64,000 bases of DNA from Candidatus Bathyarchaeia archaeon (GTDB lineage: Archaea > Thermoproteota > Bathyarchaeia > Bathyarchaeales > Bathyarchaeaceae): NCBI GenBank assembly GCA_035283685.1, contig DATETJ010000002.1:421362-485361 (forward strand), written 5' to 3'. Positions 7,855 through 64,000 of the stretch are shown here, in pieces. Numbering within the stretch: position 1 is the first letter of the stretch; each line of letters starts with the position of its first letter. The position numbers and the translations under genes are program-made. Below the pieces are notes generated by a model that had not been told where the DNA came from, searched no databases, and saw only the letters and a list, made by a program, of their open reading frames with translations.

Positions 7855-7860
7855 GTAATT

Positions 7861-13062: not shown

Positions 13063-13245
13063 TCTGTTTTCTAGGGCTTTTAAGACGGTTGGCGTGTGTT
13101 AAAAATGTTGTTGAAACGGCTACGGCTGAAACTGTGTGGAAGAAGAAGGCGCCATACCCTTAAGGCCTTCTTCTACAATGTTGCTGGAGAGTATGCATGG
13201 ATCATGGCGGTAGCGTTTTCCGCCTATTTCTTTCTTGTTGGTGGT

Positions 13246-24568: not shown

Positions 24569-24728
24569 TTCCTTTTTTCTCCAAGGAAATTTGAGAGTAG
24601 CAACCTTCGCCAAGCATATTAATAGACTTTGTGGAGTAATGTAGGCGGATGTTACTTTTGTTTTGAAAGAAAACAACTAATATCAGAAAACTGGAATATC
24701 TATAGCAAAACCCTTGAAGGTGAGGACG

Positions 24729-46832: not shown

Positions 46833-46849
46833 ACTTGGAGGTGAATAGA

Positions 46850-48256: not shown

Positions 48257-48354
48257 ACGGATTCATCACGTGACGTCCCAAACTCCCTTTTTTCTTTTCT
48301 TGTAAATTAACACAATGTCACAGGAGACCCCACCCTACGAGAAGACAGAAACTC

Positions 48355-50265: not shown

Positions 50266-50353
50266 CTGAGACCTGTCTCCTTCAATTATGGATAAGTTTA
50301 AATGTTTTATCTTCTCTGTTTTCCTACGAATCCTATTCACGCCTAAAGAGGAA

Positions 50354-51634
50354 ATGAGGATGCCGAAGCCTAAACATGTGTTGCTTTTGTTGAGTTTGTT
50401 TGTTTTGAGTCTTTCAGCTTTGAGTTTGGTCCCTTCGTCTGTGGAGCAGGTGAAGCCGCTTGTTTATGTTGATCCGACTCCTATTGATTTTGAGCCTGGC
50501 GAAAGTTTCAATATAAATATCACAATCAAGTCTGCTGTGAACGTGTTTGCTTGGGAGTTCAAGTTGTTGTGGAATGCGTCAGTTCTTAATTACACTGGAG
50601 CTGTTGAAGGCGACTTTCTTAAGGGTTTTCAAAACGCGTCCACTTATTGGGTTAACCCGGTGCTGACTCAAAACGTCAGTGACAAATATCGTGTTCTTCT
50701 TGGGGTTACTCGTTTAGGCGCTGATATTCCTGGGGTTAGCGGAAGTGGTAAGCTTGCTATGATAAGTTTTGATGTTTTGACCAAGGGCGAAACAACCTTA
50801 GATTTGGTGGAAACCAAATTGAGAGACAGCGTTCCAAATCCAATTGATCACGATTCGCGGGATGGTTTGTTCTCGAATACAGCTGGTTTTCCGCGACCTG
50901 ATTTTTCGTTCACTCCTGCTAAAGCGAATATTAATGAGACCATTACGTTTGATGCCAGCAATTCGACTGATGTTGATCAGGGCGTAGATCATTACATTGT
51001 TCTTTATTCTTGGAATTTCAGCGATGGCACTCCCGTCGTGGAGGAGGCTGGCGCCATTACTTATCATGCTTATTCTGAGGGTGGCACTTATGACGTGACT
51101 TTGACTGTTATGGACAATGATCGCTGGAACAGGTCGATTACTAAGGCGGTGAAGGTTCGGTTCACGTACGATGTCAAGGTCGCCGAGGTTAAAGCTGCGG
51201 TTGAGTCTGCTACAATTGGCGACAAAGTGGCTATTACGGTGAAGGTTAGCAATGAGGGTTCAGGCGATTTGACGAGTGTGAGTGTCACGGCTTATTATAG
51301 TGTAGGGTTGCAGTTGGGTACTGCTTTGGGTCCAGCGCAGACTACGTCGTTAGTTGTTGATCAGACTAAGACTTTGTCTTTCGAGTGGGACACTTCAGGT
51401 GTGGCTAAGGGCAGCTACCGAATTAACGCGGCGGTTGCTCCTGTTGCAGGTGAGCCTGAACAAGCTCAGGAGGATAATACGAGCCGGGGTGGCACGGTTA
51501 CGTTGGTTGAGGTTCAGGAGACTCCTTGGCTCTTGTACGGTGGCATTATCGCCGGAGTTGCCGTGGTGGCTGTTGTCGGTTTCCTGTTTATGAGGCGCCG
51601 AGGCGGCGGTGGCAAGCAAACTCCAATTCGCTAG
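50354..51634 (+). CDS. Membrane-anchored cohesin (class 2) - PKD - CARDB surface protein
   Basis: The start is taken at MRMPKPKHVLLLL (the track ORF starts at 50288). The cohesin is at nt 50459-50875 (NVFAWEFKLLW...GSGKLAMISF). The PKD motif is FDASNST...YSWNFSDGT and the CARDB motif is VTVKVSNEGSGD. A C-terminal TM helix plus RRRGGGG follows. Confidence 0.8.
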   Translation: MRMPKPKHVLLLLSLFVLSLSALSLVPSSVEQVKPLVYVDPTPIDFEPGESFNINITIKSAVNVFAWEFKLLWNASVLNYTGAVEGDFLKGFQNASTYWVNPVLTQNVSDKYRVLLGVTRLGADIPGVSGSGKLAMISFDVLTKGETTLDLVETKLRDSVPNPIDHDSRDGLFSNTAGFPRPDFSFTPAKANINETITFDASNSTDVDQGVDHYIVLYSWNFSDGTPVVEEAGAITYHAYSEGGTYDVTLTVMDNDRWNRSITKAVKVRFTYDVKVAEVKAAVESATIGDKVAITVKVSNEGSGDLTSVSVTAYYSVGLQLGTALGPAQTTSLVVDQTKTLSFEWDTSGVAKGSYRINAAVAPVAGEPEQAQEDNTSRGGTVTLVEVQETPWLLYGGIIAGVAVVAVVGFLFMRRRGGGGKQTPIR

Positions 51635-51848
51635 ACCCGGAAACTTCTAGCATCTCTTTTTTCTTGTGGTCTTTTTGGAAATCTGTTTCTTAGTAGAGGC
51701 AAGTTCTGGCGTTTGATGCGCCTTTTTCCATTATAGTGTGGTTACAATAATCGTCTAGTATTGTGTTTAGTAGATGTGTTCAGCAACTTTTAAATTGTGT
51801 CTTGCATTTAGTTTCACATGTTCAACGTTGGAGAGAGAAGGCGAGGAC

Positions 51849-54761
51849 ATGAAGAAACCTAATCCGCGTCAGGTTTACGGCATAATTGTTTTACTCACGG
51901 TTTTGATCACTCCATTTCTGCCATTAGTACCAACGGCGAAATCACAAGCTTCAACAATCGTGTATGTCGATCCCCCTTCCACTACGGGCTTATTGCCCGG
52001 AGACATTTTCGCTGTTAACATAATGATCTCGGGCGCTGTCGATCTGAAATCATGGCAGTTCAAAATGTCTTTTCAAGGAGTCATCGACGGAGTGCTAATG
52101 GTCACCGATGTCATTGAAGGCGACTTCCTGATGATAGGAGGCACAACCTACTTCACCAAGAACATTAACAATGACGCTGGCTGGGTTCAAGCCGCCGCCA
52201 GCATTCTGGGTCAGGTGGGCGGCGTGTACGGAGACGGCTGGTTGGCAACAGTGATCTTTAAAGTTGTTGGAGGCGGCGAAAGCCCGCTCGACCTGCATGA
52301 CACGATACTTCTTGATTCAAACAGTGCTGCGATTCCGCATGATGTAACTGACGGGAGTTATGTTGGTGCTGCACCTTATGCCTCTTTCAGTTACCGTCCG
52401 TATGAGGTGATTGATGGCTATGAGCCTGCAGCTAATCAAACAGTCACGCTTAATGCTACTGACAGCTACGATCCAGAAGGAACGATTATAGCAGACTATG
52501 CCTGGAACATCACCACAGCTGATTTGGCGGAAGTTATCGCAGCTTTCAGTACAACTGATAAAATCTCAACGCACAGCTTCACAAAAGAAGGGCTATACCT
52601 TGTGAAACTCAATGTTACTGACAGCGATTCGCCGAATCCCCATTGGGATGCGACTAACAAGACTATTAACATTGTAAGAAGAGACATAAACGTCACTAAG
52701 GTCGAAGTCGTGCCCATTGGAGAGATCATACCTGGGACTTTGATAAGCATCAATGTTACTGTCCAAAACATTGGAACTGGACAAGAAGACTTCGGTGTAA
52801 CCACATTCTATAATGGCGTTCCAATAAGCACCACGCAGATAATAGGACTGAGCCCGAAAACTCCCGGGACACCATATTTGCAGTACACTAAAAGCACAGT
52901 GCATACTTGGGATACAACGGGCATCCCAGAAGCTGTATACGCCATAAAAGGCGTGGCAATCACAGACCCCGGCGAGAACAACATAACAAACAACGAGCTT
53001 GTTGGCGGAAGCGTAACGATTGCATCCGCGAGCAGGCTCATATACAATATTCCAGTTTTTGGCAGAACGTTCACAGTCGGGATACGCACGGACTCGCTGG
53101 CGTCTGCTGATGCGAATGAAATGTTTGTTCACGGCGAGAAAAAATTGACCTTTAACGTCACAGGACAACAAGGAATCTTACGCTTCTCAAACGTAACATT
53201 ACCGCATGATCTACTGAACGCCTCAAGTCCAACAGCGTGGATTGTTAAACTAAACGGCTCCAACACCAACTACATGGCAATATTCAACAGCACTCATTAC
53301 TTCATATACCTCAACTACACATTCGCAAGCGCTTACACAGTGAGTATAATAGGAGAAAGCGTTGCCGACCCACCACAGCCTATCCTAATAATCACACCAA
53401 CACGAGGGGTCGCCGGTCAACCTGTGACACTTGATGCCTCCTCGAGCACAGATCCTGACGGTCACGGTTTCACCGAGTTCTTTTACTGGGCTTACAGGGT
53501 TTCTGCGCAGGGTGACAAAATCAATTTCTGGAACAAAACCACGACCGACGATTCAGTTACCGTGGTGTTTAACCAGTCTGCCCTCAGTCTGAACTCGCTA
53601 CGAGTGACCTTGACCATTACGGACAGCTGGGGAATGGAGAACACGACTCAAGAGCAAATTCTCGACGTGTTGTGGCCGTTTGACATAGCCTTAGTAGACA
53701 TTGACGTCTCCAAGGACTCCATCAACATAGGTGAAGCAATTTTCATCAATGTGACAGTGACAAGTGTCCTCGATACTCATGGCGACAAAGTGCTGTTCAA
53801 AGTCACAATATATGGCAATGATACCACATTGACGACGAAGCTGGTCAAACCTAACATACAACCTCCGGAAATCCAAGTGCCCGAAGTTGGCATTAATGCA
53901 CGAGCGGATTTCGAATGGAACACAACAAGCTTGGCAATCGGCACTTACACGCTGAAAGCAACTGTAACAGTCGTCGAGTATTCCACTATACGCACGAATC
54001 TTCCTGCGGAAATCAACATCACAGATAACATGCTGACTTACGGCGAGGTAACAATAAAGAAATGGGGAAGTCTAGTAACCATGGTACTGTCGCCTTCAAC
54101 AATTAACATAGGACAAGACACCAAGATCAGCGGGGCGGTAACTCGTTCAGCAACTTCGCTTACAGATGTCCCCGTAACCGTTCAGTACAGAGGCTCTGGA
54201 CAAACCGGCGCATGGACTGACGCTGCAACAGTGAACACAAACGTTCAAGGACAATATCAATACACATGGAAGCCCCTCTTGGCTGGCAACTATGACATAA
54301 GAGCTAGTTGGGCTGGAGACAGCATCACGTCGGCTAACGTGAGCACAACCAGAGCTTTAGTAGTTCGTCAAGCAATAAGTGAGATAACCATCGAGGTCAC
54401 AGCCAGATCAGCAACTGCAGGCTCCACAATAACCATTAGTGGCACAATCACCCCTTATGCGCCTGCTGTATCAGTGACAATTAATGTGCGGAAAGACGGC
54501 GGAACTTGGACAACGCTGGTTACAGTGACAACTGACGCTCAAGGCAACTATCAGTATGGATGGAAGCCAGGCGAAGCTGGAAGCTACGAACTGCAAGCAA
54601 CATGGGAAGGTAACGTTAACGCCGGGGCGAGCGAAAGCGACATCAAAACCGTGTCAGTGTCCGCTGATGGATTACAAAGCATCTACATATACATCGCTGT
54701 GGGAGCAATCATACTTATCGCTGTGGTTGCGGCAGTGTTCTTCCTTAGAAAGAGAAAATAA
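51849..54761 (+). CDS. Large membrane-anchored cohesin (class 1) protein with PKD/CARDB/Ig-like array
   Basis: The start is taken at MKKPNPRQ (the track ORF starts at 51774). The cohesin is at nt 51960-52367 and is close to the module at 30816-31223. It has PKD-like motifs (LDASSSTDPDG), CARDB-like segments and two tandem Ig-like repeats (NVQGQYQYTWKP / DAQGNYQYGWKP). A C-terminal TM helix plus FLRKRK follows. Confidence 0.8.
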   Translation: MKKPNPRQVYGIIVLLTVLITPFLPLVPTAKSQASTIVYVDPPSTTGLLPGDIFAVNIMISGAVDLKSWQFKMSFQGVIDGVLMVTDVIEGDFLMIGGTTYFTKNINNDAGWVQAAASILGQVGGVYGDGWLATVIFKVVGGGESPLDLHDTILLDSNSAAIPHDVTDGSYVGAAPYASFSYRPYEVIDGYEPAANQTVTLNATDSYDPEGTIIADYAWNITTADLAEVIAAFSTTDKISTHSFTKEGLYLVKLNVTDSDSPNPHWDATNKTINIVRRDINVTKVEVVPIGEIIPGTLISINVTVQNIGTGQEDFGVTTFYNGVPISTTQIIGLSPKTPGTPYLQYTKSTVHTWDTTGIPEAVYAIKGVAITDPGENNITNNELVGGSVTIASASRLIYNIPVFGRTFTVGIRTDSLASADANEMFVHGEKKLTFNVTGQQGILRFSNVTLPHDLLNASSPTAWIVKLNGSNTNYMAIFNSTHYFIYLNYTFASAYTVSIIGESVADPPQPILIITPTRGVAGQPVTLDASSSTDPDGHGFTEFFYWAYRVSAQGDKINFWNKTTTDDSVTVVFNQSALSLNSLRVTLTITDSWGMENTTQEQILDVLWPFDIALVDIDVSKDSINIGEAIFINVTVTSVLDTHGDKVLFKVTIYGNDTTLTTKLVKPNIQPPEIQVPEVGINARADFEWNTTSLAIGTYTLKATVTVVEYSTIRTNLPAEINITDNMLTYGEVTIKKWGSLVTMVLSPSTINIGQDTKISGAVTRSATSLTDVPVTVQYRGSGQTGAWTDAATVNTNVQGQYQYTWKPLLAGNYDIRASWAGDSITSANVSTTRALVVRQAISEITIEVTARSATAGSTITISGTITPYAPAVSVTINVRKDGGTWTTLVTVTTDAQGNYQYGWKPGEAGSYELQATWEGNVNAGASESDIKTVSVSADGLQSIYIYIAVGAIILIAVVAAVFFLRKRK

Positions 54762-54894
54762 GGCGGGCATTGAACTCGTAGACGCTTTCTCCCATCTTTC
54801 TGTATGCTCTGGCTTATAGACGACAATTACACAAACGATTTATATTTGACTGCAGTTTTATTACGTGTAGTTGGCAGTAGAGGGAGAGAAAGAG

Positions 54895-56076
54895 ATGAAA
54901 CGTGTACTAGCAATAGCACTATTTATGATTATAGGTTTCAGCGCAGTTTTCAGCATGGTAAAAATAACTTCAGCAACAACAATCATAACTTTGAGTATTG
55001 ACCCCCTGAAAGTTCCTGGAAAAGTCGGAAGAAACATCACATTCGACATCGCCATCAGCGGAGTCAACTCATCCGTCCTTGACTTGTGGGCGTGGGAACT
55101 CAAACTCAACTGGACAGACATTGACTTCAACTACGTCAGCGCAGTGCAAGGTTCGTTCCTTGCACAAAGCGGCACCACCTTCTGGGTCTCACCAATTAGG
55201 AGCGGCACAGGAGGCAACGAAACTTTGACTTTGGCTTGCACGCGTACGGGAGCCGGATCAGGCTCCTTGGGTAGCGGTGTTCTAGCCACCATAACCCTAT
55301 ATGTGGTCGGTGGAACATCAGGATCCAAATTTGACCTTTACTCCATCAAGCTGCGGAACAGCCTCCTTAATCCAATTGAGCCGCCAACATACGATGTAAG
55401 CGTGCTCGATCAAGTGGGCGAGTTTGCACGACCAAGAAGCTATGATCTCGAACCGGTGTTTGGCGAGGTTGACATTTATGATCTAGCGGTCGTAGGAGTG
55501 AACTACGGAACAAACGTTATCCGCGTCACAAAGATTGCCACACAATGGGCAGTAGCAGGTGGAGCTGGATGGCTCAATCCAGAGTTTGTGGGATCTTCTG
55601 ATGACACTCGGGCATCCGAAACGACTCTCAACGATGCACATAGATGGACTAACTTCGGCTTCAACACAACATCTTGGACGGGAGTGAGTAAAGTCGAAGT
55701 GGGGCTGGAGAGAATGGTTGACAGCAGCTTCAGATTGATAACCGTTGCAATGTCCAACGACAATGGCGGAACTTGGAGCGCCACGACGTTTACTCACAAC
55801 GCCTCTGACCAATTTGACACTCTCGTCTGGGTCGATGTAACCACAGCATACGCTTGGACCAAAGCAATGGTGAATAACATCGCGGTCAGACTGACCTATG
55901 CTTCGGCTACAGGAACAACATTCCGTCTTGACTACTTGGCTATTAGGGTCACTCCGTCTCCAGTGCTTTTGCCGCCAGAGGTATTTGATCCAGAAGCGGA
56001 TGTAGACAACGACCTTAACGTTGACATTGATGACTTGGTCAGAGTGGCGACCAATTATGGGGAGTACGAACTATAA
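54895..56076 (+). CDS. Cohesin + split-dockerin protein (putative adaptor)
   Basis: The start is taken at MKRVLAIALF (the track ORF starts at 54871). The cohesin is at nt 54982-55425 (LWAWELKLNW...GSGVLATITL). The dockerin half-sites are at nt 55441-55512 (GEVDIYDLAVVGVNYG) and 55978-56073 (DVDNDLNVDIDDLVRVATNYG). They are separated by about 155 aa. Confidence 0.75.
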   Translation: MKRVLAIALFMIIGFSAVFSMVKITSATTIITLSIDPLKVPGKVGRNITFDIAISGVNSSVLDLWAWELKLNWTDIDFNYVSAVQGSFLAQSGTTFWVSPIRSGTGGNETLTLACTRTGAGSGSLGSGVLATITLYVVGGTSGSKFDLYSIKLRNSLLNPIEPPTYDVSVLDQVGEFARPRSYDLEPVFGEVDIYDLAVVGVNYGTNVIRVTKIATQWAVAGGAGWLNPEFVGSSDDTRASETTLNDAHRWTNFGFNTTSWTGVSKVEVGLERMVDSSFRLITVAMSNDNGGTWSATTFTHNASDQFDTLVWVDVTTAYAWTKAMVNNIAVRLTYASATGTTFRLDYLAIRVTPSPVLLPPEVFDPEADVDNDLNVDIDDLVRVATNYGEYEL

Positions 56077-56092
56077 TTTGGAGGGAGCGTGA

Positions 56093-57685
56093 ATGAACAA
56101 AGCAATCAAGATTATGTTGCTTCTGCTTGCACTTGCACTAGCTTCAGTCCTTACAGCTTCAGACAAAGTTGCGCCTTTCCAAATCGAAAGCGCTAGCGCA
56201 CCTCCAGTTACCGGTACGTATGCTTCCCGCCCCAGCAATTACACATTTAGTAGTGGGGTATTCGCGAGATTCCCAGACAGAGCGTACGATGGCAGCAACG
56301 CAACAACAAACGTTGCCAATTGGGCCCACACCAACGGAGCAGGTTACGGCACATCTAACGGCTACTTTGAGCTAAACGTCTACGGTCCGAGGGCAGCACC
56401 GCCTAGGGGTTCAAGAATCACGCGGGTTGATCTGCATGTTGTTTTCTTTGTGGTATCGCAGACGTCAGATACCGGAGCCACAATGTACATCAACTATCGG
56501 GTAAGTCCGAGCACTACTAACACTACTCTTCAATCGTGGACTCGAGCACAGCTAAACGTTAGTGCTCCCTGGCATAACAGAACTTATACCAATCAAGCAG
56601 ATCCCAACGGCGGCGGATGGGCTTGGGAAGACTTATCCAACCTGAAGTTCCGGTTCAACAGACAAGACCCGAGTACGCCAAGCACCAGCGGCGTCTTACG
56701 AATCCATGAGGTTTGGGCAACTGTTTACTACGAGTTTACGCAAACAGTCGCCATCTATCCAAAGATTCAATCGCCTATTCCTTCCCAAGTCAAAATAAAC
56801 GTCACAGGAATAGAGGAGCTGTACGGCTTTGAGTTTAAGATGACCTACAACGCAACAGCGATAACTGTGACAAGCGTCCAATTAGGACCATATCTGAACA
56901 CCACGGCTGGTGCAGGAAACACTTATGGCGCTCTACTCAAACTGAATGACACAGCAGGCTTCGTTTGGGCTACACAATCAATTCGAGGAAACATTAGAGG
57001 CGGAAACATAGCTTACGGAACTTGGCAAACGCTAGCCACAATAAACATCGCTACCCAATCTGGTGGACCAACCAACCTCAACTTCGAAGTCAAACTCGCA
57101 GGACACAACTACCTCATAAAGAAGGCATACCCCGGTTCCTTCACACTAATCCAGCCTGGACATGACGTTGCAGTAACAAACATCGTTCCAACACCAACAA
57201 CGGTAACGCGAGGAGACAACGTAACAGTTGACGTCACAGTCAGAAACGACGGCGACTACATCGAAACATTCTACCTATCAACCTACGCTAACACATCAGC
57301 CGCAACCTCGCTAATAGAAACCAAAACCGTGAGCGGCTTAGGCTTAGGCGCAACCCAAGTAGTGTCCTTCACATGGAACACCCGCGACTTCCCGAGAGGC
57401 AACTACACAGTCAGCGCAGTAGCAGCTACAATAGGCGTACTAGACACAGACTCAACTGACAACACACTATACAACCTAGCCTCAGTAGTAGAAGTCAACC
57501 CACTCTTCGGCGACATAAACGAAGACGGCTGGGTAAGCAGCGCCGACCTCGCAGCCATCAACTTCTCATGGGGAACCCAACCCGGAGACCTACTCTGGAA
57601 CTTGAACGCTGACCTAAGCAGCGACAGCTTCATAGACGCTGAAGACCTCAGACTACTCGGCGAAGCCTGGGAACCACCAGCATAA
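56093..57685 (+). CDS. Unknown N-terminal module + cohesin + CARDB + C-terminal dockerin protein
   Basis: It has a GGAGGGAG RBS and a signal peptide. The cohesin is at nt 56744-57151 (LYGFEFKMTY...WQTLATINI). The CARDB region is HDVAVTNIVP...VTVRNDGD. The dockerin is at nt 57500-57673 (GDINEDGWVSSADLAAINFSWG / ADLSSDSFIDAEDLRLLGEAW). Confidence 0.8.
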   Translation: MNKAIKIMLLLLALALASVLTASDKVAPFQIESASAPPVTGTYASRPSNYTFSSGVFARFPDRAYDGSNATTNVANWAHTNGAGYGTSNGYFELNVYGPRAAPPRGSRITRVDLHVVFFVVSQTSDTGATMYINYRVSPSTTNTTLQSWTRAQLNVSAPWHNRTYTNQADPNGGGWAWEDLSNLKFRFNRQDPSTPSTSGVLRIHEVWATVYYEFTQTVAIYPKIQSPIPSQVKINVTGIEELYGFEFKMTYNATAITVTSVQLGPYLNTTAGAGNTYGALLKLNDTAGFVWATQSIRGNIRGGNIAYGTWQTLATINIATQSGGPTNLNFEVKLAGHNYLIKKAYPGSFTLIQPGHDVAVTNIVPTPTTVTRGDNVTVDVTVRNDGDYIETFYLSTYANTSAATSLIETKTVSGLGLGATQVVSFTWNTRDFPRGNYTVSAVAATIGVLDTDSTDNTLYNLASVVEVNPLFGDINEDGWVSSADLAAINFSWGTQPGDLLWNLNADLSSDSFIDAEDLRLLGEAWEPPA

Positions 57686-57710
57686 AAAACACCAGCTCTC
57701 ACACATCATC

Positions 57711-57720
57711 TTCTTTTTTC
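57711..57720 (+). terminator. Oligo-T tract; candidate archaeal terminator of the cohesin/dockerin operon
   Basis: The sequence ttcttttttc lies about 25 nt after the stop codon at 57683-57685. Confidence 0.35.
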
Positions 57721-57972
57721 GTTACACGCAGAACAGCAGAGAGCCTTAAACAACCTGAATCTAGCCAGCGCCTCCAAAGCAACACACGCTGGCATCTGCA
57801 CACCCAAACCACACTCCTGCAACACAAGACTTGACGACGACACTACAACGAATACCTAGCCATCAACACGCACACAGCAAAGAAGACCCTGCAACAAAGG
57901 AAGCAGTTGTGGCAAAAGCACGAGCGCCCTTCAACAAGCTCCCACACAGCCACACAGGCGCACTCAAAAAGG

Positions 57973-58017
57973 TCGTTATTATTACGGTTTCTAAGCGGAA
58001 GTTAATAACACCTGAAA
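57973..58017. repeat. Copy 1 of an intergenic repeat of about 45 bp (22-nt exact core ttctaagcggaagttaataaca at 57989-58010)
   Basis: The core is identical to 58290-58311, and the flanks are similar (tcgttattatt.. / ..ctgaaa). The copy contains the GTTATTA/TAATAAC inverted repeat. Confidence 0.8.
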
Positions 58018-58215
58018 CAGAAACCAGCCCCCCACGCCATCCCTTGGCGAAACCATGCCCAAACAGTGACAAAACTTGACACAAGACACCAGGCAAACAG
58101 CGCCCAAAACACCATACAAAGACCCAAACAGACCCCAAAACACAACGCTCAAACCTTGTTGATGACACTAAGAACGATTGGGCATCAACACCCACACAGC
58201 CAGACGCCTACAACA

Positions 58216-58260
58216 TAGAAGTAGTAGTCAACGTACACGCGGCGCAGACTACTACTTCTA
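58216..58260. other. Perfect 14-bp inverted repeat (stem-loop) in non-coding region
   Basis: The arm tagaagtagtagtc (58216-58229) pairs with gactactacttcta (58247-58260). The loop is 17 nt. Confidence 0.8.
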
Positions 58261-58273
58261 AACCTGAAGCACC

Positions 58274-58318
58274 TCGGTATTATTGCTTGTTCTAAGCGGA
58301 AGTTAATAACATCTGAAA
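58274..58318. repeat. Copy 2 of an intergenic repeat of about 45 bp (22-nt exact core at 58290-58311)
   Basis: It has the same 22-nt core and similar flanks as 57973-58017. The cores are 301 bp apart. Confidence 0.8.
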
Positions 58319-58496
58319 AGAAACCCACCTCCAACATCCAAGATGTTGTTGTGGCAAACCCTTCAACGTCAACAACAACTTCAAAACAGCCACAGCCCTT
58401 AACACGTAACATTGAGAGGCGTTAATGCCACCGGGAACAGTCGTATGACGACATCCACGCAGCTTTCAGCCTCTAAACGCATCCGCAACACTGTTA

Positions 58497-58545
58497 GAAG
58501 AAGGTATAAGAGGCTAACCGCCTTCTTCTTTTGAAATTTCTTTTT
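58497..58545 (+). terminator. Hairpin followed by a T-rich tract (intrinsic-terminator-like, + strand)
   Basis: The arm gaagaagg (58497-58504) pairs with ccttcttc (58521-58528). It is followed by ttttgaaatttcttttt. Confidence 0.4.
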
Positions 58546-58592
58546 CCGCAGAGCCACATGCACCCTAACATAGAGGCTCAGCAACAGTCAGT

Positions 58593-58626
58593 TGTTAGTG
58601 TTTCTTAGGCAACGTCAACACTAACA
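58593..58626. other. 10-bp perfect stem-loop just downstream of the minus-strand gene that ends at 58680
   Basis: The arm tgttagtgtt (58593-58602) pairs with aacactaaca (58617-58626). The loop is 14 nt. Confidence 0.7.
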
Positions 58627-58679
58627 TCCACGCAAATGCAACCGCACAAACCGACAATTCATAAAGCTGGAAACTACGC

Positions 58680-59246
58680 TTACTTTCTCTTAACCTTCAT
58701 CGGCTTCCTAGACTTCGCAACCAACCCAAAAATCATGACAACCACACCCAACAAAGCCGCCAACGTTCCCACAACTGAATACGGGGAACCAACACGATTC
58801 TTAGCCACATTCTCCTTCGCATACACATTACTGCCAGGCAAAACATCAACTGGAACCGCGCCCTCATTCACCAAATCCACCTGATACGTACCATTCCCAC
58901 CCACATCCACCCTCTGACCAAAAACCGCTCCAACCTCACTAAAAACGGGAACCAAAGTCTGACTACCCTCCGCATCCCTCTGCACACTCGACACCGACAC
59001 CCTAACAACCCCAGAAAAACTCAAATTCAACTTAAACCACGAACTCCTCGACATAAACCTACCCCAAAACCCCCTGTCCCCAGAACTCCCCGACGCATTC
59101 AACCGCGAAGGCCAAATAGGCCTCACAACAGAACCCCAAACCTCAACCACATTCTCCTCAAAATAAACCTCACGAACCGAATACAACGTCAACGCAACAC
59201 CCACAATAACCAGAACCAAACCTGCAACAACAAATAACCGCCTCAA
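58680..59246 (-). CDS. Hypothetical membrane protein (N- and C-terminal TM helices, extracytoplasmic middle)
   Basis: 188 aa with MRRLFVVAGLVLVIVGVAL at the N-terminus and LLGVVVMIFGLV plus a basic tail at the C-terminus. Codon usage is GT-rich. Confidence 0.45.
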   Translation of the reverse strand: MRRLFVVAGLVLVIVGVALTLYSVREVYFEENVVEVWGSVVRPIWPSRLNASGSSGDRGFWGRFMSRSSWFKLNLSFSGVVRVSVSSVQRDAEGSQTLVPVFSEVGAVFGQRVDVGGNGTYQVDLVNEGAVPVDVLPGSNVYAKENVAKNRVGSPYSVVGTLAALLGVVVMIFGLVAKSRKPMKVKRK

Positions 59247-59261
59247 CCCAACCGCCTCATC

Positions 59262-59759
59262 CTAACTCTGCTTCACAACCGCCGAACCCCTAAGCTCAAC
59301 CACTTGCTTATCAACATACTCCCAGAACAAACTTTCAAACTCGCTCATCGCCTCTTGCAGCCTCACATCCCTCAAAAAAAGCCCTCCCCCACCAAAAACC
59401 GAACCAACATAACCCAAAACCATCCCCAACGAAAACCCACTAGTCTTCCTCCCAGGCACAAACTCCACCTTAAAAAACTCCGGACTACCAAAAACCCTCA
59501 CATTAACCCGGAAATGAACATTCACCGCCTCTATTTTGAAACCCGAGCCAAAACGCTCCAACTTAGTCTCAAACTTGTTGTCAACGAAAAAACGCTCTAC
59601 ACCCTCACTGAACAACCGGAGATCCACATTCTGATCAGACCACTCATCTTTCACAGTTTCAATCCCTACATAACCAGAAAGCAGAAACGATGTTTTAAAA
59701 CCTTTTTGACGCCGACCAACGTCACTTAGACTTCCTCCGCTTCCGCCAAAAAACAACAA
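59262..59759 (-). CDS. Hypothetical protein
   Basis: 165-aa ORF whose 5' end overlaps the upstream gene by 38 nt, so the start is uncertain. No family recognised. Confidence 0.4.
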   Translation of the reverse strand: MLFFGGSGGSLSDVGRRQKGFKTSFLLSGYVGIETVKDEWSDQNVDLRLFSEGVERFFVDNKFETKLERFGSGFKIEAVNVHFRVNVRVFGSPEFFKVEFVPGRKTSGFSLGMVLGYVGSVFGGGGLFLRDVRLQEAMSEFESLFWEYVDKQVVELRGSAVVKQS

Positions 59760-61716
59760 TCACAACAAAAGCCACAGCCGCTACAACCACAATCACCAGA
59801 CCAGTAAGCCACACATCCAAAAACCTAGGCGACACAACCACATCTCGCTGACTCTGACCACTCCAATAACCATCCTTAGACGCATTCACCACTAGCTCAA
59901 CAACCTGCCGCTCAGCGATCGAGGGCACCGTGAACTTCACCTGAAAACTCCCCTCCAAATCAGTTACACCCCTCTGCAGAGAGAAAACCCCAGACGCATT
60001 AGAAAAAAACGTAATATTAACTCCAGCAACCGCACTCAAACCATCAGTAACATAAACGTCAATAATCAACTCGCCACCCACACTCACACTCGGAGCATTA
60101 AGAACCATCGCGACAACCAAAGTTGGCAACGCCCTCAAAACCAGAGAGGCATTACTGCCACTCCCAAACCCTAAATCATCAATCACACTCAAAAACACCG
60201 TGAAATTGCCAGGCAACACATACGCATGAATCACGGTGGGCTCAAAAACCCAGCCACTGTCAGAACCGTCGCCAAAATCAAAAAAATAACGCTCAATTCG
60301 CCCATCATCACCTGACTTGGACGCATTAAAAGTAACCGCTTCGTTAACAGCCAACAAACTCTTATCCGCTTCCAACAATGCAAAGGGTCGCTCATTAGCC
60401 ACTGCACTCAAGAGAAACGGCGTGAAATCCAAATCCACGCCATTGCCGTCCACAGGATTCCCCTTTCCACCAGGGTTTAGAGCTGGGTGATATGGACCGC
60501 TGGCGTCACCCCAGAAATTGAACTCCGCATTCACAACAGCCTCGTCAGTAACGTTCATCCCGTAAACATTGCCATAAATGTCGTTCATGCCAGCAACATT
60601 ATACGTGTCACCAGTAACATTGACCCCGTAACCATTGTACGAAATCGAATTCCCTGCAATCTTGGTTTTAACCCCCTCCTCAACAGGTCTCGACCGTCCT
60701 CCAGAAATAAAAATCCCAAAACCCACATTCTCAGAAATGACGTTCTCAGACACCAGCACATCAAACTCAGAACTCACATGGTGGAAATTTGCGTAAACAT
60801 AAAGCCCAGCTTGGTTGAAAACCACTCGATTACCTAAAACAGATGCATTGTAAATGGAGCCAAACCACGGTCCACCGCTGTACAAGTAGATCCCATCAAA
60901 ATTGTAAGCCACAGTATTGTTCGAGATCACGACATTCAGAATTCGACTTATGTCATAATCAAAGAAGCCCGCCCAAATGAAAAAGTACAAACCCCGCCCA
61001 TTGTGAACAACATTGTTGCCAATGATCGCCACATCTGAAATAGTTGCACCTCGCGTGGCCCACGCCTCAAGACGAATCCCATTCTCATTATGCTGAATTA
61101 CACTATCGACGATGCTTAGACCCGAGACGATGTCACCGCTACTTGACACACCGTTTCCATTGATTTCGATCAGCGAATCTCTTATGTTAACATGATTTCT
61201 GCCTTCGACATGGACGCCGCTGATCAGACAGTGGGCGATTTTGGAGCTTTCGATTTCAGCTGTTCCCAGACTTTGCACAGTAATCCCGTACCGGGCATAT
61301 TCCACGACTGCGTTTCTCATTTGAAATCGCTCGTTTTGTGTGCCGTTGAATTTTATTGTGCCCCAGTCTCCTGGCGTCGGTTGAGGCTTGCCTGACGTGA
61401 AAACTATAGAGCTGGTCTCGGTTCCGAGGGCTTGCAGACTTCCGCTCACTATCAGAGAGTAGTTGCCTTGAAACTTGATTTCAACCCCGGGTTCGATCGT
61501 GAGTGTGGCACCGCCCTCTACGAGGATGTCGCTTGTGATTATGTAAGGGCTGCCAGAAACCGTCCACGTAGTGTTTTGGGATATTTGAGCTCCAATCAAA
61601 CCTGAGCTCAGGCCAGCTGCATTCATGAATAGGGGTACGCCGGCAAGAGAGCTGAAGAGCAACGCAGCCTGCAAGATTAACAAAACTGGTTTCATGACTT
61701 TGCTTGGAATCGACAT
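59722..61716 (-). CDS. Surface protein: parallel beta-helix (PbH1/NosD-like) + PKD + Ig-like + C-terminal TM anchor
   Basis: 664 aa with a signal peptide and beta-helix repeats (VISNNTVAYN, VLGNRVVFNQ, ISENVISEN). The PKD motif is FNASKSGDDGRIERYFFDFGDGS. A C-terminal TM helix plus WRKRRKSK follows. Confidence 0.75.
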   Translation of the reverse strand: MSIPSKVMKPVLLILQAALLFSSLAGVPLFMNAAGLSSGLIGAQISQNTTWTVSGSPYIITSDILVEGGATLTIEPGVEIKFQGNYSLIVSGSLQALGTETSSIVFTSGKPQPTPGDWGTIKFNGTQNERFQMRNAVVEYARYGITVQSLGTAEIESSKIAHCLISGVHVEGRNHVNIRDSLIEINGNGVSSSGDIVSGLSIVDSVIQHNENGIRLEAWATRGATISDVAIIGNNVVHNGRGLYFFIWAGFFDYDISRILNVVISNNTVAYNFDGIYLYSGGPWFGSIYNASVLGNRVVFNQAGLYVYANFHHVSSEFDVLVSENVISENVGFGIFISGGRSRPVEEGVKTKIAGNSISYNGYGVNVTGDTYNVAGMNDIYGNVYGMNVTDEAVVNAEFNFWGDASGPYHPALNPGGKGNPVDGNGVDLDFTPFLLSAVANERPFALLEADKSLLAVNEAVTFNASKSGDDGRIERYFFDFGDGSDSGWVFEPTVIHAYVLPGNFTVFLSVIDDLGFGSGSNASLVLRALPTLVVAMVLNAPSVSVGGELIIDVYVTDGLSAVAGVNITFFSNASGVFSLQRGVTDLEGSFQVKFTVPSIAERQVVELVVNASKDGYWSGQSQRDVVVSPRFLDVWLTGLVIVVVAAVAFVVIVVFWRKRRKSK

Positions 61717-61872
61717 TGGTCAGCCTTCAGCCTACCATAATTCACTGTGGATTCCGCGGGTATTATTCTTAGCGACGCAAGAGATCGTCATCGCTAGGCT
61801 GGCTTCCGATGGCTGTTTATAGATTTGTTTAAATGGTTTCTCTCGAAAGCAATATTTTTGGAGGTTGCAACA

Positions 61873-63372
61873 GTGAAGAGGTTGCCGATTCTTGTTGTTA
61901 ATCTGCTGATTCTGGTTTGTGTTCTTCCCTCGGTGTTTGTGAAAGCTGCGGCTGATGGCACGTTTAGTGGTCCAATGGACGTGGCTCAGGTTGCGCCAAA
62001 TCCGGTTGTCGAGACCAACTCGACTAGTTTGATAGTTTTGGTTCTTGTGAATTCTACAATTTATGGTGGTGTTGAGGCGTCGTTGATGCGGTACAGGGCG
62101 GATTTGGTTGGCTTCGGTTTTGAGGATGTTAAGGTTTTGAACTGGTCAGAGCCGAATCCTGCTCTTATCCGGGGGACTTTGCAGGATTTCTATTTGAATA
62201 GTAGCTTGGCTGGGGTGCTTTTGGTTGGCGATTTGCCCGCTGCTGAGTATGAGATGTTCACTGAGTGGGATTATGAAAGGTTTCCAATGGATTTGTATTA
62301 CATGGACCTAGACGGCAACTGGACCGACAGCGACAGAGATGGCATATTAGATACGCATTCCGGGAGGAAAGTGGCGCCTGAGATTTGGGTTGGCAGAATA
62401 AAGGCTTCGAACTTAGGGGAGGACGAGGTTTCGTTGGTGAACAACTATTTTGCTAGGAATCATCAGTACCGGTCAGGTTTGCTTTCGGTTCCAAAGAGAG
62501 CGTTGATGTACATTGACGATGACTGGGCTGATTACGCGACCATGGATAGTTACTCTCTGGGTCTGTTGTACGATAACGTCACTGAGGTTTTTGATAAGCG
62601 AACTACCAGTGTGGCTGATTTCAAGGAGCGACTGAATCAAGGTTACGAGTGGATTCATTTGCGCGCTCACGGCGATTGGAAGCAGACTGGTTTTTTGGTG
62701 CCCGGCGAAAGTGGTGGTCTGATTTATTCAACCGAATATAAGGCTCTTAATCCTCAGGCATTGTTTTATCAGCTGTTTGTGTGTTACGCCGCTAGGTTCA
62801 CTGAGCCGAACTATCTCGCGGGTGAGATTGTGTTCAACACGGATTCTGCATTGATGGCTATTAGCTCTACGAAGCTTGGCGGCATGTTGATGTATTGGAC
62901 TTTTTATGAAGCTTTAGCGAACGGCAAAACTGTTGGCGACGCTTTCAAAGAATGGTTTGTCAAGTGGGGAGAAGGGAAACTTTCGATTTCTAGTAATTGG
63001 ATTGGCAGAAAATGGTTCTATGGATTAACTGTTATTGGTGATCCGACGCTTAGGCTGCGTTGGCTTGGGGAGAAGGAAATTGCAGATTTGCAGAGAAGGG
63101 AGGAGGAGGTTATTGACGATTTGCCGCTTGTTCAAGGGCTGTTTGAGCAGATTGAGAATTCGGAGTCAAGTTACGATTCGTTGAACGCGCAGTATAATAA
63201 TTTGAAGGATTCTCATTTGGCTTTGCGTTTGACTTATGACGGAGTAATCGTTCAGTTGGGTGATATTCGTGATTTGGTGTATTTCTTTCTGTTAGTCGTT
63301 GGCGGGCTTGCGGTTTCCAATGTGTATTTGGTTAGGACGAGGCCTAAACCTAAGAGGTTAAATTTGGATTAG
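61873..63372 (+). CDS. Gingipain-like (peptidase C25 / clan CD) cysteine peptidase homologue with C-terminal coiled-coil and TM anchor
   Basis: GGAGGT precedes the GTG at 61873 (the track ORF starts at 61825). The C25-like landmarks are LLVGDLPAAEY, DLYYMDLDGNW, EIWVGRI, WIHLRAHGDW (His-Gly), LFVCYAARF (Cys) and VIGDPTLRL. Confidence 0.6.
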   Translation: MKRLPILVVNLLILVCVLPSVFVKAAADGTFSGPMDVAQVAPNPVVETNSTSLIVLVLVNSTIYGGVEASLMRYRADLVGFGFEDVKVLNWSEPNPALIRGTLQDFYLNSSLAGVLLVGDLPAAEYEMFTEWDYERFPMDLYYMDLDGNWTDSDRDGILDTHSGRKVAPEIWVGRIKASNLGEDEVSLVNNYFARNHQYRSGLLSVPKRALMYIDDDWADYATMDSYSLGLLYDNVTEVFDKRTTSVADFKERLNQGYEWIHLRAHGDWKQTGFLVPGESGGLIYSTEYKALNPQALFYQLFVCYAARFTEPNYLAGEIVFNTDSALMAISSTKLGGMLMYWTFYEALANGKTVGDAFKEWFVKWGEGKLSISSNWIGRKWFYGLTVIGDPTLRLRWLGEKEIADLQRREEEVIDDLPLVQGLFEQIENSESSYDSLNAQYNNLKDSHLALRLTYDGVIVQLGDIRDLVYFFLLVVGGLAVSNVYLVRTRPKPKRLNLD

Positions 63373-63417
63373 TGCATGTGTCTTCGGTTTGGTGGGTGGG
63401 AGATTGGTGTGGGTTTC

Positions 63418-64000
63418 ATGAGTTGCAGAGCTGTTCGCTTGACCCTTGTGCTGTGTCTTGGTTTGTCTATGGCGTTTGCTGGTTTCCTGACTAGTTTCGT
63501 TGTTGCTGAACCTGTTGAGCGTGTTGTTGGGGTTCAGGTTGGAGCTTGGGTTAAGTATGGGGGTTTTTTGGCTTTGTGGGATTCTGAGAATCCTGCGGCT
63601 TATCCGACGTTGGATATTTTGGATATTAACAATACTCTTTCGGTTGTTAATACTGTGCTTAATGTTTCTGGGTCTGCGGTGACTTTTGATGTTTCGACTC
63701 GTTATAGGAATGGTAGTGTTGTTTCCAGTGTGGTGGAGGTTGATGTGCGGACTGGTGTGGGTGAGGGTAATTTGACTTTTGTGTCTGCTGGGCTTGTTGC
63801 TGATGACAGGGTTTATACGTCCGGTGAGTTGGCGGTAGCGCGTGTTAATTCAACTATGCTTAGTGGGTTTGCTGGGGTTTTTAGGGAGACGAATTTGTTG
63901 AATGTGACTCAGACGTCTATTGGGCTTGAGAGTTCGTCGGCGTATTGGGCTGAGTATTTTTGGGATAGGTTGACGGGTGTTTTGGTTAGGCAGTTTTGGA
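63418..64000 (+). CDS. Secreted hypothetical protein (partial; continues past window end)
   Basis: It is truncated by the window edge and absent from the track. The frame is open from the ATG at 63418 to 64000. The translation reads MSCRAVRLTLVLCLGLSMAFAGFLTSFVVAEP... (signal peptide), then a V/G/N-rich beta-type sequence with N-x-S/T sequons. Confidence 0.55.
   Translation, partial: MSCRAVRLTLVLCLGLSMAFAGFLTSFVVAEPVERVVGVQVGAWVKYGGFLALWDSENPAAYPTLDILDINNTLSVVNTVLNVSGSAVTFDVSTRYRNGSVVSSVVEVDVRTGVGEGNLTFVSAGLVADDRVYTSGELAVARVNSTMLSGFAGVFRETNLLNVTQTSIGLESSSAYWAEYFWDRLTGVLVRQFW

Follow-up and report, generated by a model that had tools for sequence, protein, structure and literature searches.

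The 994-nt gap between two convergent genes of a Bathyarchaeia genome probably belongs to a high-copy, lineage-specific family of intergenic repeats, interspersed and mosaic in nature, that resembles BIME and BOX elements. Approximately 800 nt of the gap (57831–58631) is a head-to-tail chain of 11 modules that all share one orientation. The modules recur in other combinations at many other loci. Arrays of this kind gain, lose and duplicate modules faster than their flanking genes diverge. Coordinates refer to the window, which is the whole stretch of 64,000 nt that was analyzed.

Module architecture of the gap

The gap is bordered by a plus-strand gene (56093–57685), which encodes a 530-aa protein with CARDB, cohesin and dockerin domains, and by a minus-strand gene (58680–59246), which encodes a 188-aa protein with two transmembrane helices. 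The initial annotation had singled out this 1-kb interval between convergent genes and the A/C richness of its plus strand. The interval is present as described, and the strand bias is borne out by a GC skew of −0.22 to −0.33 and an AT skew of +0.18 to +0.47 on the plus strand in 300-nt windows. A plus-strand T6 run read from the sequence at 57714–57719, 29 nt past the stop codon of the 530-aa gene, probably serves that gene itself as an archaeal-type terminator signal and lies outside the repeat array; oligo-T acts as a termination signal in archaea. Ten contigs that carry the neighboring gene are 100% identical across the gap and thus provide no covariation information, and three contigs terminate inside the gap. 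The sole relative found for the 188-aa gene exhibits 50% identity and retains the gene order, with a gap of 74 nt. A search of the GTDB representative genomes with the 188-aa protein gave no match.

The gap contains two exact copies of the 22-mer TTCTAAGCGGAAGTTAATAACA, at 57989 and 58290, and shuffled sequences contain none even when up to three mismatches are permitted. Each 22-mer resides in a 59-nt block (57973–58031 and 58274–58332), and the two blocks share 80% identity. The two repeats of about 45 bp with an exact 22-nt core that had been reported are confirmed and correspond to two copies of one module, M2. Repeated short motifs had also been noted, and CCCACACAGCCA is indeed found exactly at 57941 and 58191, with four matches in the window at up to one mismatch against 0.41 expected.

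All of the stem-loops listed in the initial annotation are present. The repeat search recovered a perfect 14-bp hairpin at 58216–58260, a perfect 10-bp hairpin at 58593–58626 and, at 58340–58381, a 12-bp hairpin that had been overlooked. A 9-bp hairpin (58496–58504/58521–58529) followed by TTTT was read from the sequence and also appears in the RNA fold, which contains the GTTGATG/CATCAAC hairpin at 58158–58189 as well. The hairpin GTTATTA/TAATAAC (57975–58011) was read from the sequence, as was the 7-bp hairpin GCCAGCG/CGCTGGC (57764–57793), whose strand is undefined. Neither the 12 module profiles nor the matches from other loci cover this last hairpin, which sits in the stretch that separates the gene from the array. 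The RNA fold of 57820–58640 gave z = −4.7 against shuffles for the A/C-rich strand and z = −1.4 for the G/U-rich strand.

To delineate the modules, we built 12 module profiles and located their matches with nhmmer, with E-values that apply within the gap. The order in the window is M9′-HPB′-M2-M7-M9-M1-M2-HPB-M5-M6-M10, with M9′ and HPB′ denoting decayed copies. All of the modules are on the plus strand and measure approximately 40–115 nt, and seven of the 11 contain hairpins of 7–14 bp. The chain begins with the decayed M9 copy (57831–57878; E = 3e-4), which has a broken hairpin and aligns with 58155–58200, and the decayed HPB copy (57900–57937; E = 1.4e-3). The first M2 copy (57973–58025; E = 6e-20; core at 57989–58010) is followed by M7 (58040–58152; E = 7e-21), an A/C-rich, hairpin-less module of approximately 113 nt in which the repeat search found the internal short repeat CAAACAGnnCCCAAAACAC and which has 14 distinct copies at other loci. 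M9 (58155–58200; E = 2e-19) contains the GTTGATG/CATCAAC hairpin and then CCCACACAGCC, and M1 (58213–58263; E = 7e-21) consists of CAACATA and the perfect 14-bp hairpin TAGAAGTAGTAGTC/GACTACTACTTCTA. The second M2 copy (58274–58325; E = 2e-18; core at 58290–58311) precedes HPB (58334–58390; E = 4e-21), in which CAACATCCAA, an approximately 12-bp hairpin GATGTTGTTGTG/CAACAACAACTTC and AAAACAGCC succeed one another. M5 (58419–58463; E = 5e-12) is partial, covering profile positions 8–52 with the arm GTCGTATGACGAC and then ATCCACGCAGC. M6 (58494–58551; E = 1e-18) comprises the 9-bp hairpin AGAAGAAGG/CCTTCTTCT with a 16-nt loop and then TTTTGAAATTTCTTTTTCCGCAGAGCC, and M10 (58591–58631; E = 8e-16) comprises the perfect 10-bp hairpin TGTTAGTGTT/AACACTAACA. 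The presence of two M2 modules in the window is the outcome of a partial internal duplication. Outside the gap, a solitary M6 (13138–13179, minus strand; E = 1.6e-9) is covered by 15 short matches from other loci and is located 67 nt downstream of a 204-aa gene (13246–13860), on the same strand as the gene.

Dispersal, polarity and turnover of the arrays

Is the core confined to this gap? The initial annotation had raised the possibility of a dispersed element, and the search for the core elsewhere proved decisive: a 20-mer of the core is found in more than 115 metagenome contigs of related archaea among the matches listed, nearly all of which contain a single copy. A single window would not have revealed this dispersal. 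Alignment of the flanks of these matches revealed the same modules in differing combinations, with variable loops and fixed stems, and window positions 57941–58571 are covered by up to 136 short matches from other core-bearing loci. The same genome contains a third core copy approximately 6 kb farther on, inverted relative to those of the window. Because an exact match to the core served to pick the loci, M2 looks better conserved than it is. Beyond these ascertained sites, 395,526 nt of sequence contained 15 more module clusters, corresponding to 3.8 per 100 kb. The core 20-mer had no match in the GTDB representatives or in IMG/VR, indicating that the family is not viral and that its hosts lie outside the species representatives. 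The M1 and M6 patterns likewise had no match in IMG/VR. A literature search found no paper that joins Bathyarchaeia with intergenic repeats and hairpins.

The arrays are polar. Among 148 M2 copies from 117 sources, 145 are in the same orientation and three in the opposite one, and the corresponding ratios are 47:0 for HPB, 37:0 for M9 and 21:0 for M12. The order is also constrained: M2 comes directly after M1 in 51 of 56 cases, and among the 67 arrays that contain M6 it is the last recognized module in 54; M10 comes next after M6 in six arrays besides that of the window. The resulting layout places M9 or M1-M2 at one side, a variable middle, and M6 with a pyrimidine/T-rich tail at the other side. 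At least 12 module types exist, and they include M7, which spans 113 nt without a hairpin, and M2, the core of which is not palindromic. A typical module is a 7–14-bp hairpin with a constant stem sequence that usually starts with GAAG and ends with CTTC. CAACAT often stands before the stems and CACACAGCC after them, and CAACAT-type words are found 5′ of the stems of M1, HPB, M9, M10 and M5. CAACAT occurs 208 times against 34 expected, and its reverse complement occurs only 19 times. The linkers between the hairpins are A/C-rich and unable to pair with one another.

Orthologous sites document the turnover of the arrays. The site of one other locus that is orthologous to window positions 12854–13256 (flanks 70–74% identical) contains M2 and M9, not M6. 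At another site, three species with flanks of 81–86% identity display M2-M1, M1-HPB-M2-M4 and M2-M7-M5-M4-M2, respectively, and module order is not strictly collinear between arrays. The stems are constant across species whose coding flanks are 70–86% identical, which suggests recognition by a putative factor.

All array sites are located between predicted genes. The genomic context was counted with stricter genes from a home-made codon model and with extended array borders, excluding spurious ORFs on the G/T-rich strand. On this basis, 15 of the 35 arrays with robust flanking genes are at convergent-gene sites (p = 0.016 versus 25% expected), five are at divergent-gene sites, and 23 are co-oriented with the upstream gene (p = 0.09). 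The genes beside the arrays are of ordinary, unrelated housekeeping types. The 648 predicted proteins near arrays yielded no recurrent neighbor family or transposase (clustering and inspection of ten, without Pfam scans). We found no target-site duplication, terminal inverted repeat or mobilizing enzyme for the arrays, and comparison of syntenic loci yielded no insertion polymorphism, the indels there being gene gains or losses, and no empty/filled pair close enough to reveal duplications.

We propose that the modules would be non-coding, non-autonomous repeat DNA. Recombination between copies, a putative trans-acting protein specific for the invariant stems and the words beside them, or both may mediate their spread and reshuffling, and the repeats would persist where insertions are harmless, at gene 3′ ends. 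Read-through from a neighboring gene would present the A/C-rich strand as a row of stable hairpins with a T-rich end, and such a row is predicted to be able to stop or stabilize transcript 3′ ends. This RNA-level role of the arrays is purely conjectural. Moreover, a T6 run that belongs to the upstream gene itself precedes the array in the window, and read-through into the array is thus not assured.

Known repeat systems and alternative explanations

REPs and BIMEs, known from Escherichia coli, Pseudomonas and others, are described as short, strictly intergenic palindromes that exceed 100 copies per genome and are often located at gene 3′ ends, where they form mosaic arrays of unit types and linkers with a proposed function in 3′-end stabilization or termination (PMC2817692, PMC3733652). 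The Bathyarchaeia arrays resemble them in these respects, with intergenic stems of 7–14 bp at approximately 3.8 sites per 100 kb. The palindromes of REPs are imperfect and measure 20–40 nt. They differ in the archaeal host, the fixed first and last modules, the strong A/C strand bias and the range of at least 12 module types, including the 113-nt hairpin-less M7 and a non-palindromic core. Furthermore, their units all point one way, and the alternating orientation of REPs was not observed. A GTAG tag is found on M6 only, and the M6 copy of the window has GTTAG instead.

BOX elements of Streptococcus pneumoniae have the structure boxA-(boxB)n-boxC, with three module types and partly complementary ends. 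The likeness to BOX extends to the modular organization with conserved end modules and variable internal modules, approximately 100 copies, intergenic location, a stable predicted fold, the non-coding nature and the lack of a known transposase. However, the two families have no sequence relation, BOX has a bacterial host, and the present arrays have at least 12 module types, non-complementary ends and a strand bias. Archaea harbor MITEs, including the Sulfolobus SM elements, and haloarchaea harbor PATEs, palindrome-associated elements derived from IS200/IS605 with subterminal hairpins and no terminal inverted repeats. The arrays share with these archaeal elements a non-autonomous, non-coding, multi-copy and intergenic character. 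However, no terminal inverted repeat, target-site duplication or parent insertion sequence with matching ends was seen, and length and content change one module at a time, in contrast to simple internal deletions from a single master copy. In the array of the window, no inverted repeat joins the two ends and the only inverted pairs are the internal hairpins; M9/M1 or M2 at one end of an array is unrelated in sequence to M6 at the other. An IS200/IS605-derived PATE or omega-RNA region would have subterminal hairpins at both ends, a tnpA/tnpB parent with the same ends and insertion 3′ of a fixed tetra- or pentanucleotide. The arrays agree with this in having hairpins and in lacking terminal inverted repeats, and CAACAT recurs 5′ of the stems; no tnpA- or tnpB-like family was evident among the 648 predicted neighboring proteins on clustering and inspection of ten. 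The arrays are also reminiscent of CRISPR in their short palindromic repeats, single orientation and non-coding stretch, but repeats and spacers do not alternate at a regular period, every segment and not the repeat alone recurs at other loci, and no cas genes are nearby. A distance of 301 nt, with other common modules in it, separates the two M2 copies.

It is possible, if unlikely, that the modules are REP- or PATE-like DNA hairpins moved as single-stranded DNA by an HUH tyrosine transposase of the RAYT or IS200/IS605 TnpA type. The enzyme would be encoded elsewhere in the genome, and arrays would grow by repeated insertion beside earlier copies. The short perfect palindromic stems of constant sequence with conserved short flanking words point to sequence recognition beyond the fold alone, and high copy number, intergenic location, preference for convergent sites and the absence of terminal inverted repeats are consistent with such an enzyme. 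The strict array polarity fits the strand-specific single-strand mechanism of IS200/IS605. However, clustering of the 648 predicted proteins near arrays and inspection of ten turned up no transposase-like family, although RAYT genes are single-copy and need not adjoin their repeats, and the analysis covered 64 kb plus 3.6 kb of this genome. We know of no RAYT in this lineage. In addition, no insertion polymorphism was found, and a hairpin-only element would fit neither M7, with its 113 nt and no hairpin, nor M2, the core of which is not a palindrome. REPs are described as GTAG- or CGTC-tagged palindromes (PMC3733652) that alternate in orientation within BIMEs (PMC2817692). GTAG is usual directly 5′ of the M6 stem, with GTAGAAGAAG in 43 arrays versus 53 with GAAGAAGG, but most modules have neither the GTAG nor the CGTC tag, and the modules here all point one way.

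The initial annotation had considered one or more structured ncRNAs, and in that form the idea is not supported, given that there was no Rfam match, compensatory changes were almost absent and the suspected pseudoknot did not covary. The window had no Rfam match at the gathering score, and the gap had none at E ≤ 10, the best score there being 17.8 bits against a gathering score of 50. Ten other full-array loci had none at the gathering score bar a tRNA elsewhere, and the array-bearing locus L034 had none at E ≤ 1. No tRNA or tmRNA genes were found. Archaeal C/D guide RNAs have C (RUGAUGA) and D (CUGA) boxes spaced 50–70 nt apart, and the TGATGA and CTGA words in hairpin stems or flanks do not show this C...D arrangement; the Rfam result likewise gave no sign of H/ACA guide RNAs. 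The interleaved helix GGTTTCT/AGAAACC of the proposed pseudoknot does exist in M2 copy 1, but across 102 distinct M2 copies it forms 5.0 bp versus 5.07 ± 0.07 bp with randomly reassigned partners. Two or more Watson-Crick types are found in 16 of 152 predicted pairs, mostly ill-defined inner pairs, and in none of the main stems. These counts were taken on the fold of each module consensus; RNAalifold gave no structure for most modules, with ragged nhmmer rows. Such invariant pairs are evidence neither for nor against structure. Comparison of G·U with A·C mismatches gave a mixed strand signal, favoring the A/C-rich strand for M5 and M1 and not for HPB, M6 and M9, and was not used.

A broader version, in which each array would be an independent gene, with its own promoter and an M6 terminator, for a polar A/C-rich ncRNA of many hairpins, is distinctly unlikely. 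The products would be protein-sponge RNAs or precursors cut at CAACAT and CACACAGCC into small hairpin RNAs. Strict orientation and order, a constant 3′ module that has a T-rich tail, and separate hairpins in non-pairing A/C linkers, with z = −4.7 on that strand only, are all compatible with such genes. M5 stems accept G·U on the A/C-rich strand (144 G·U versus 40 A·C cells), and 12 of the 35 arrays are opposite to the gene upstream and cannot be its 3′ UTR. Two loci (L017 and L078) have a common TATA-like box approximately 25–30 nt before M1, but no common promoter motif emerged from 80-odd aligned array starts, and a TATA consensus derived from gene upstream regions was too noisy. Many arrays start 0–30 nt past, or a few nt before, the upstream stop codon, leaving no room for a promoter. 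Furthermore, compensatory base changes are nearly absent, Rfam has no match, orthologous sites differ in module content, variable loops with fixed stems are the reverse of a loop-binding sponge, and it would be unusual for one genome to have approximately 100 near-identical RNA genes.

The terminator or insulator array suggested in the initial annotation is a possible reading. M6 resembles an intrinsic terminator on the strand where it closes the array, with a 9-bp hairpin followed by TTTTGAAATTTCT; in the window, its stem includes three G-C pairs and is followed by TTTT. The M6 tail contains 39% T versus 21% across arrays, and the arrays are enriched at convergent sites. However, M6 has a 16-nt loop, and a T-run of at least four follows in 40% of its copies (31 of 77), no richer than ordinary gene ends (125 of 348). 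A generic terminator scan was not above shuffles and did not single out M6. A strong terminator function of M6 is unsupported by these T-run statistics and the scan, and archaeal RNA polymerase is not known to require hairpins.

Very improbably, M2 and other modules are double-stranded DNA sites for a regulator or chromatin protein, or promoter elements, with a role in initiation or chromosome organization. M2 contains two A/T-rich boxes, TTATTAC and TTAATAAC. Its core is conserved as sequence rather than structure and has TATA-like A/T-rich octamers in otherwise A/C-rich surroundings, and a palindrome, GAAATTTC, follows M6. Nonetheless, the distance from array to start codon is inconsistent (84–717 nt on the divergent side and −4 to 901 nt downstream), arrays are depleted between divergent genes (5 of 35) and usually closed by a terminator-like module, and duplex binding sites would not be expected to show strand asymmetry and hairpins.

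It is scarcely credible that the gap is a frameshifted pseudogene or encodes minus-strand proteins of 110 aa (57863–58195) and 75 aa (58185–58412). The decayed-gene option of the initial annotation is refuted at the level of sequence analysis: comparison of the gap with the rest of the window by blastn and tblastx gave a best hit of only E = 0.07, tblastn with a relative's 1131-aa orthologue of the upstream gene gave no match inside the gap, a 1-nt indel separates the two M2 copies 8 nt before the core, and codon periodicity is absent from M7, the longest hairpin-less module. The variability of M7 by phase is 0.148/0.111/0.134, with no third-position pattern, and its indels are of 1, 10 and 11 nt, mostly 1 nt. 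Both minus-strand ORFs do read the repeat in one frame (VINFRLE) and have homologous stop codons, they are annotated as genes in three of the ten identical contigs, and related ORFs occur in 19 protein clusters. However, the minus strand is A-poor, which opens long frames by chance, and the peptides contain much C, W, F and V but hardly any D, E, K and N. The ORFs called over arrays are found only in metagenomes, are 46–111 aa long and cover just 36–95% of the query. Small minus-strand proteins were thus ruled out by composition, the frame-breaking indel, uneven ORF lengths and absent periodicity.

Implications for Bathyarchaeia

Bathyarchaeia are abundant uncultivated archaea of sediments and aquifers. 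To our knowledge, nothing is known of their transcript 3′-end formation, RNA stability or mobile DNA. Were the family no more than junk repeat DNA, the finding would be ordinary and its interest local. Even so, gene callers place spurious ORFs of 46–111 aa on the arrays and assemblies break within them, and a module library would therefore improve the annotation and binning of Bathyarchaeia.

An extrapolated number of approximately 100 arrays of invariant hairpins per genome implies an active copying mechanism or a common binding factor. As a tentative possibility, the arrays may be the substrate or product of a dedicated machinery, either an enzyme that copies or moves GAAG...CTTC hairpins with CAACAT and CACACAGCC flanks or an RNA-processing pathway. 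If true, the former would give Archaea their first REP-RAYT-like or comparable system. In the latter, polar A/C-rich multi-hairpin transcripts would be cut into a new class of archaeal small RNAs. Either form would explain the identity of the stems and the M2 core across species with genes that are 70–86% identical. The family offers a concrete handle on this biology in the form of defined motifs for metatranscriptome searches and in vitro tests.

An array of modules between two convergent genes

The gap between two convergent genes in the window, initially described as gene-free, is a 994-nt non-coding stretch. On its left is a + strand gene (56093-57685) whose 530-aa product carries CARDB, cohesin and dockerin domains; this gene has its own T6 run ahead of the array. 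On its right is a - strand gene (58680-59246) whose 188-aa product has two TM helices; NCBI assigns this flanking protein to a Candidatus Bathyarchaeia MAG. Across the gap, A and C predominate on the + strand, with a GC skew of -0.22 to -0.33 and an AT skew of +0.18 to +0.47. A profile search recognized 11 modules at 57831-58631, namely M9' (57831-57878), HPB' (57900-57937), M2 copy 1 (57973-58025), M7 (58040-58152), M9 (58155-58200), M1 (58213-58263), M2 copy 2 (58274-58325), HPB (58334-58390), M5 (58419-58463), M6 (58494-58551) and M10 (58591-58631), where the prime marks a decayed copy. The two repeats of ~45 bp listed in the initial annotation correspond to the two M2 copies; their exact 22-nt core (57989 and 58290), for which shuffles gave 0 matches, sits within a 59-nt block whose two copies are 80% identical. 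The repeated motif and the six stem-loops of that annotation are likewise present: CCCACACAGCCA has exact copies at 57941 and 58191, and the stem-loops are joined by an additional one of 12 bp at 58340-58381. A weaker similarity to the left of the first M2 copy is the trace of an M9-x-M2 segment that was partly duplicated; at least two M2 copies occur in 18 of 122 arrays. The same genome carries a solitary M6 (13138-13179) and, ~1 kb beyond the window end, a second array in the opposite orientation.

Ten other assemblies, some from Rifle-type JGI samples, are 100% identical to the window across the gap and are thus uninformative for comparison. Three of these terminate within the gap, at 57965 (contig locus L008), 58044 (L007) and 58153 (L006), and such breaks in three independent assemblies of one population are consistent with graph collapse on dispersed repeats. 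The breaks fall at or near module borders (just 5' of M2, just 3' of M2 and the M7/M9 junction). The sole relative found for the 188-aa gene lies on another metagenome contig (L011; 50% identity) with gene order kept. There, the orthologue of the upstream gene encodes 1131 aa, with about seven CARDB repeats versus one in the window protein, stops 74 nt from the convergent gene and shows no similarity to the gap. Given this spacing and lack of similarity, the ~920 extra nt belong to the window's lineage alone.

The 188-aa gene is real, and its 50%-identical syntenic homologue indicates that G/T skew represents true codon and amino-acid bias, not non-coding DNA. Right of the gap (58650-60300 and 61800-64000), genes have extremely G/T-rich coding strands, with a + strand GC skew down to -0.64 over 58800-59550 and of +0.4 over 62850-63900. 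These genes (58680-59246, 59262-59759 and 59722-61716 on the - strand; 61825-63372 on the + strand) encode V/G/F/S-rich proteins. The 165-aa ORF at 59262-59759 (-) has no Pfam match and shares 38 nt with the 3' end of the 664-aa gene at 59722-61716 (-); it is called as 130 aa in other assemblies (L001 13170-13562), and its start is therefore uncertain. More broadly, the genes of 44787-63372 encode clustered secreted or surface proteins that carry PKD, CARDB, Big_3_5, cohesin and dockerin domains, together with a NosD/beta-helix protein and a C25 (gingipain-type) peptidase; the cluster resembles a cellulosome-like cohesin-dockerin surface system, here in an archaeon. Elsewhere, at 6583-9234 and 22445-26564, a pair of adjacent MoeA-type molybdopterin molybdotransferase paralogues (-) and two divergent aldehyde:ferredoxin oxidoreductase-like genes fit a tungsten- or molybdenum-dependent metabolism.

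Copies, polarity and hairpins of the module family

Is the core a dispersed element, as the initial annotation asked? Its 20-nt version occurs on more than 115 JGI metagenome contigs from many samples, with a single copy on almost all contigs among the matches listed. Alignment of the flanks identified the core as part of one module (M2) among short units that recur in varied combinations. Profiles for 12 modules, searched against all loci, gave same:opposite orientation counts of 145:3 (M2), 50:3 (M4), 47:0 (HPB), 46:3 (M5), 37:0 (M9), 23:1 (M10), 21:0 (M12), 15:0 (M8), 14:1 (M7) and 11:3 (M11), as well as 89:21 (M6) and 69:17 (M1), for which at least some opposite-strand matches are palindromic self-hits, a case seen for each of the two in the window. 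Arrays span 31-673 nt of recognized modules and have a composition, on the strand shown, of A 0.34, C 0.28, G 0.17 and T 0.21. Their order is polar: the module after M1 is M2 in 51/56 cases and the one after M9 is M1 in 14/26, and M6 is the final module in 54 of 67 arrays and final or penultimate in 64. Past M6, many arrays run on with an additional type of module, two to three tandem units of ~27-28 nt, CCAACAT-N3-AAACGTCACGC, as at L001 18520-18590 (-; ~600 nt beyond the window end) and on the contigs L052, L082, L045 and L091. A further conserved non-coding element, CTCATATTTGGATCATATAGTGAACCTAGGGGGTAGGCTGAGAGAAAAC, lies upstream of some arrays (oriented copies at L031 ~2560-2620, L059 ~6150-6210 and L084); on its 5' side lie a stretch rich in A and C and a CAACATAGAAAGTG unit.

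The majority of modules are hairpins whose stem sequence is the same everywhere. The stems consist of GNN triplets (GAAGTAGTAGTC, GAAGTTGTTGT, GAAGAAGG, GAAGAAGAAGT and GATGTCGTC): 5' arms are runs of GAA, GTA, GTT, GAT and GTC, and 3' arms are complementary NNC triplets, as noted at 58216-58260, 58340-58381, 58496-58529 and other loci. This arm pattern suggests that the different hairpin modules all diverged from a single ancestral triplet-repeat hairpin. CAACAT often lies 5' of the stems (208 occurrences versus 34 expected; 19 for its reverse complement) and CACACAGCC often lies 3' of them, and loops differ from copy to copy. Compensatory change is nearly absent (16/152 pairs; zero in the main stems). 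M2 is conserved as sequence, with no consistent pairing among its variants, which for this comparison were second copies not selected by the core search.

Genomic setting and turnover

Beyond the ascertained sites, 15 more module clusters were found in 395,526 nt (3.8 per 100 kb), which extrapolates to roughly a hundred sites in each genome. The neighbours are unrelated housekeeping genes (methyltransferase, ABC transporter, RadA, acyl-CoA synthetase and regulators), with no recurring family and no transposase seen near the arrays. When genes were called more strictly, convergent pairs flank 15 of 35 arrays (p = 0.016 versus 25%), co-directional pairs flank 8 in sense and 7 in antisense orientation, and divergent pairs flank 5. 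Usually just 10-55 nt separate the M6/M10 end from the converging gene's stop codon (35 loci, including 58631-58680 in the window). Between the upstream gene and the first recognized module the spacing varies far more (13-800 nt), a spread that is probably due in part to decayed, unrecognized modules.

Module turnover at orthologous sites is quick. The site after a 204-aa gene holds M6 in the window and M2+M9 in its counterpart L068, with flanks 70-74% identical, and one site in three species, with flanks 81-86% identical, holds three different module sets. The core has 0 matches in 185,579 GTDB species representatives and 0 in IMG/VR, from which the M1 and M6 patterns are also absent; the family is therefore chromosomal and limited to a clade that is poorly sampled.

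In the portions of the literature drawn on here, bacterial REP/BIME elements (PMC2817692, PMC3733652) come closest. The family resembles REP/BIME and BOX elements in copy number, location and mosaic build; however, its arrays do not show the alternating orientation of BIMEs, and the GTAG tag of REPs is found on M6 alone, in most of its copies. Pneumococcal BOX elements are also among the closest analogues. Unlike MITEs, the arrays have no terminal inverted repeats, and unlike CRISPR arrays, they have no periodicity. Generic predictions of REP-like palindromes exist for archaea (PMC12306157), and our literature search found nothing on such repeats in Bathyarchaeia.

Nature and possible mechanism of the arrays

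The arrays might be independent RNA genes, a reading that we consider improbable. A third of them cannot be 3' UTRs of their upstream gene; however, a shared promoter was looked for and none was found. The structured RNA initially envisaged found no counterpart in Rfam, with zero matches in the window, zero in the gap with the cut-off relaxed to E <= 10, and none in other loci with the same elements; the window has no tRNA genes. The 110-aa and 75-aa minus-strand ORFs that some gene callers annotate over the gap are rejected as proteins and are by-products of an A-poor strand, because their peptides are C/W/F/V-rich, the two M2 copies differ by a 1-nt indel beside the core, related ORFs at other loci (46-111 aa) are alignable only in part, and the longest hairpin-less segment has 1-nt indels and no codon-phase pattern. 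The suggested decayed gene fails, as no other part of the window resembles the gap at the DNA or six-frame level. The GGTTTCT/AGAAACC helix of the proposed pseudoknot scores no better than with shuffled partners.

The arrays constitute a non-coding repeat family that is dispersed, polar and mosaic; its hairpins are invariant in sequence, its modules turn over rapidly, and it is tolerated mainly at gene 3' ends. We propose in the first place that the family may spread and reshuffle by recombination between copies, by a putative factor that recognizes the stems and flanking words, or by both. RNA folding of 57820-58640 gave z = -4.7 versus shuffles for the A/C-rich strand and z = -1.4, not clearly better than shuffles, for the G/U-rich strand. 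A role at transcript 3' ends is weakened by the M6 tail, in which T-runs are no more frequent than in ordinary gene ends, by the T6 run that the upstream gene has here before the array, and by co-orientation with the upstream gene in only 23/35 arrays. In second place, an A/C-rich transcript would form isolated hairpins in non-pairing linkers and end in the T-rich M6 tail, and these hairpins and tail could block or stabilize 3' ends.
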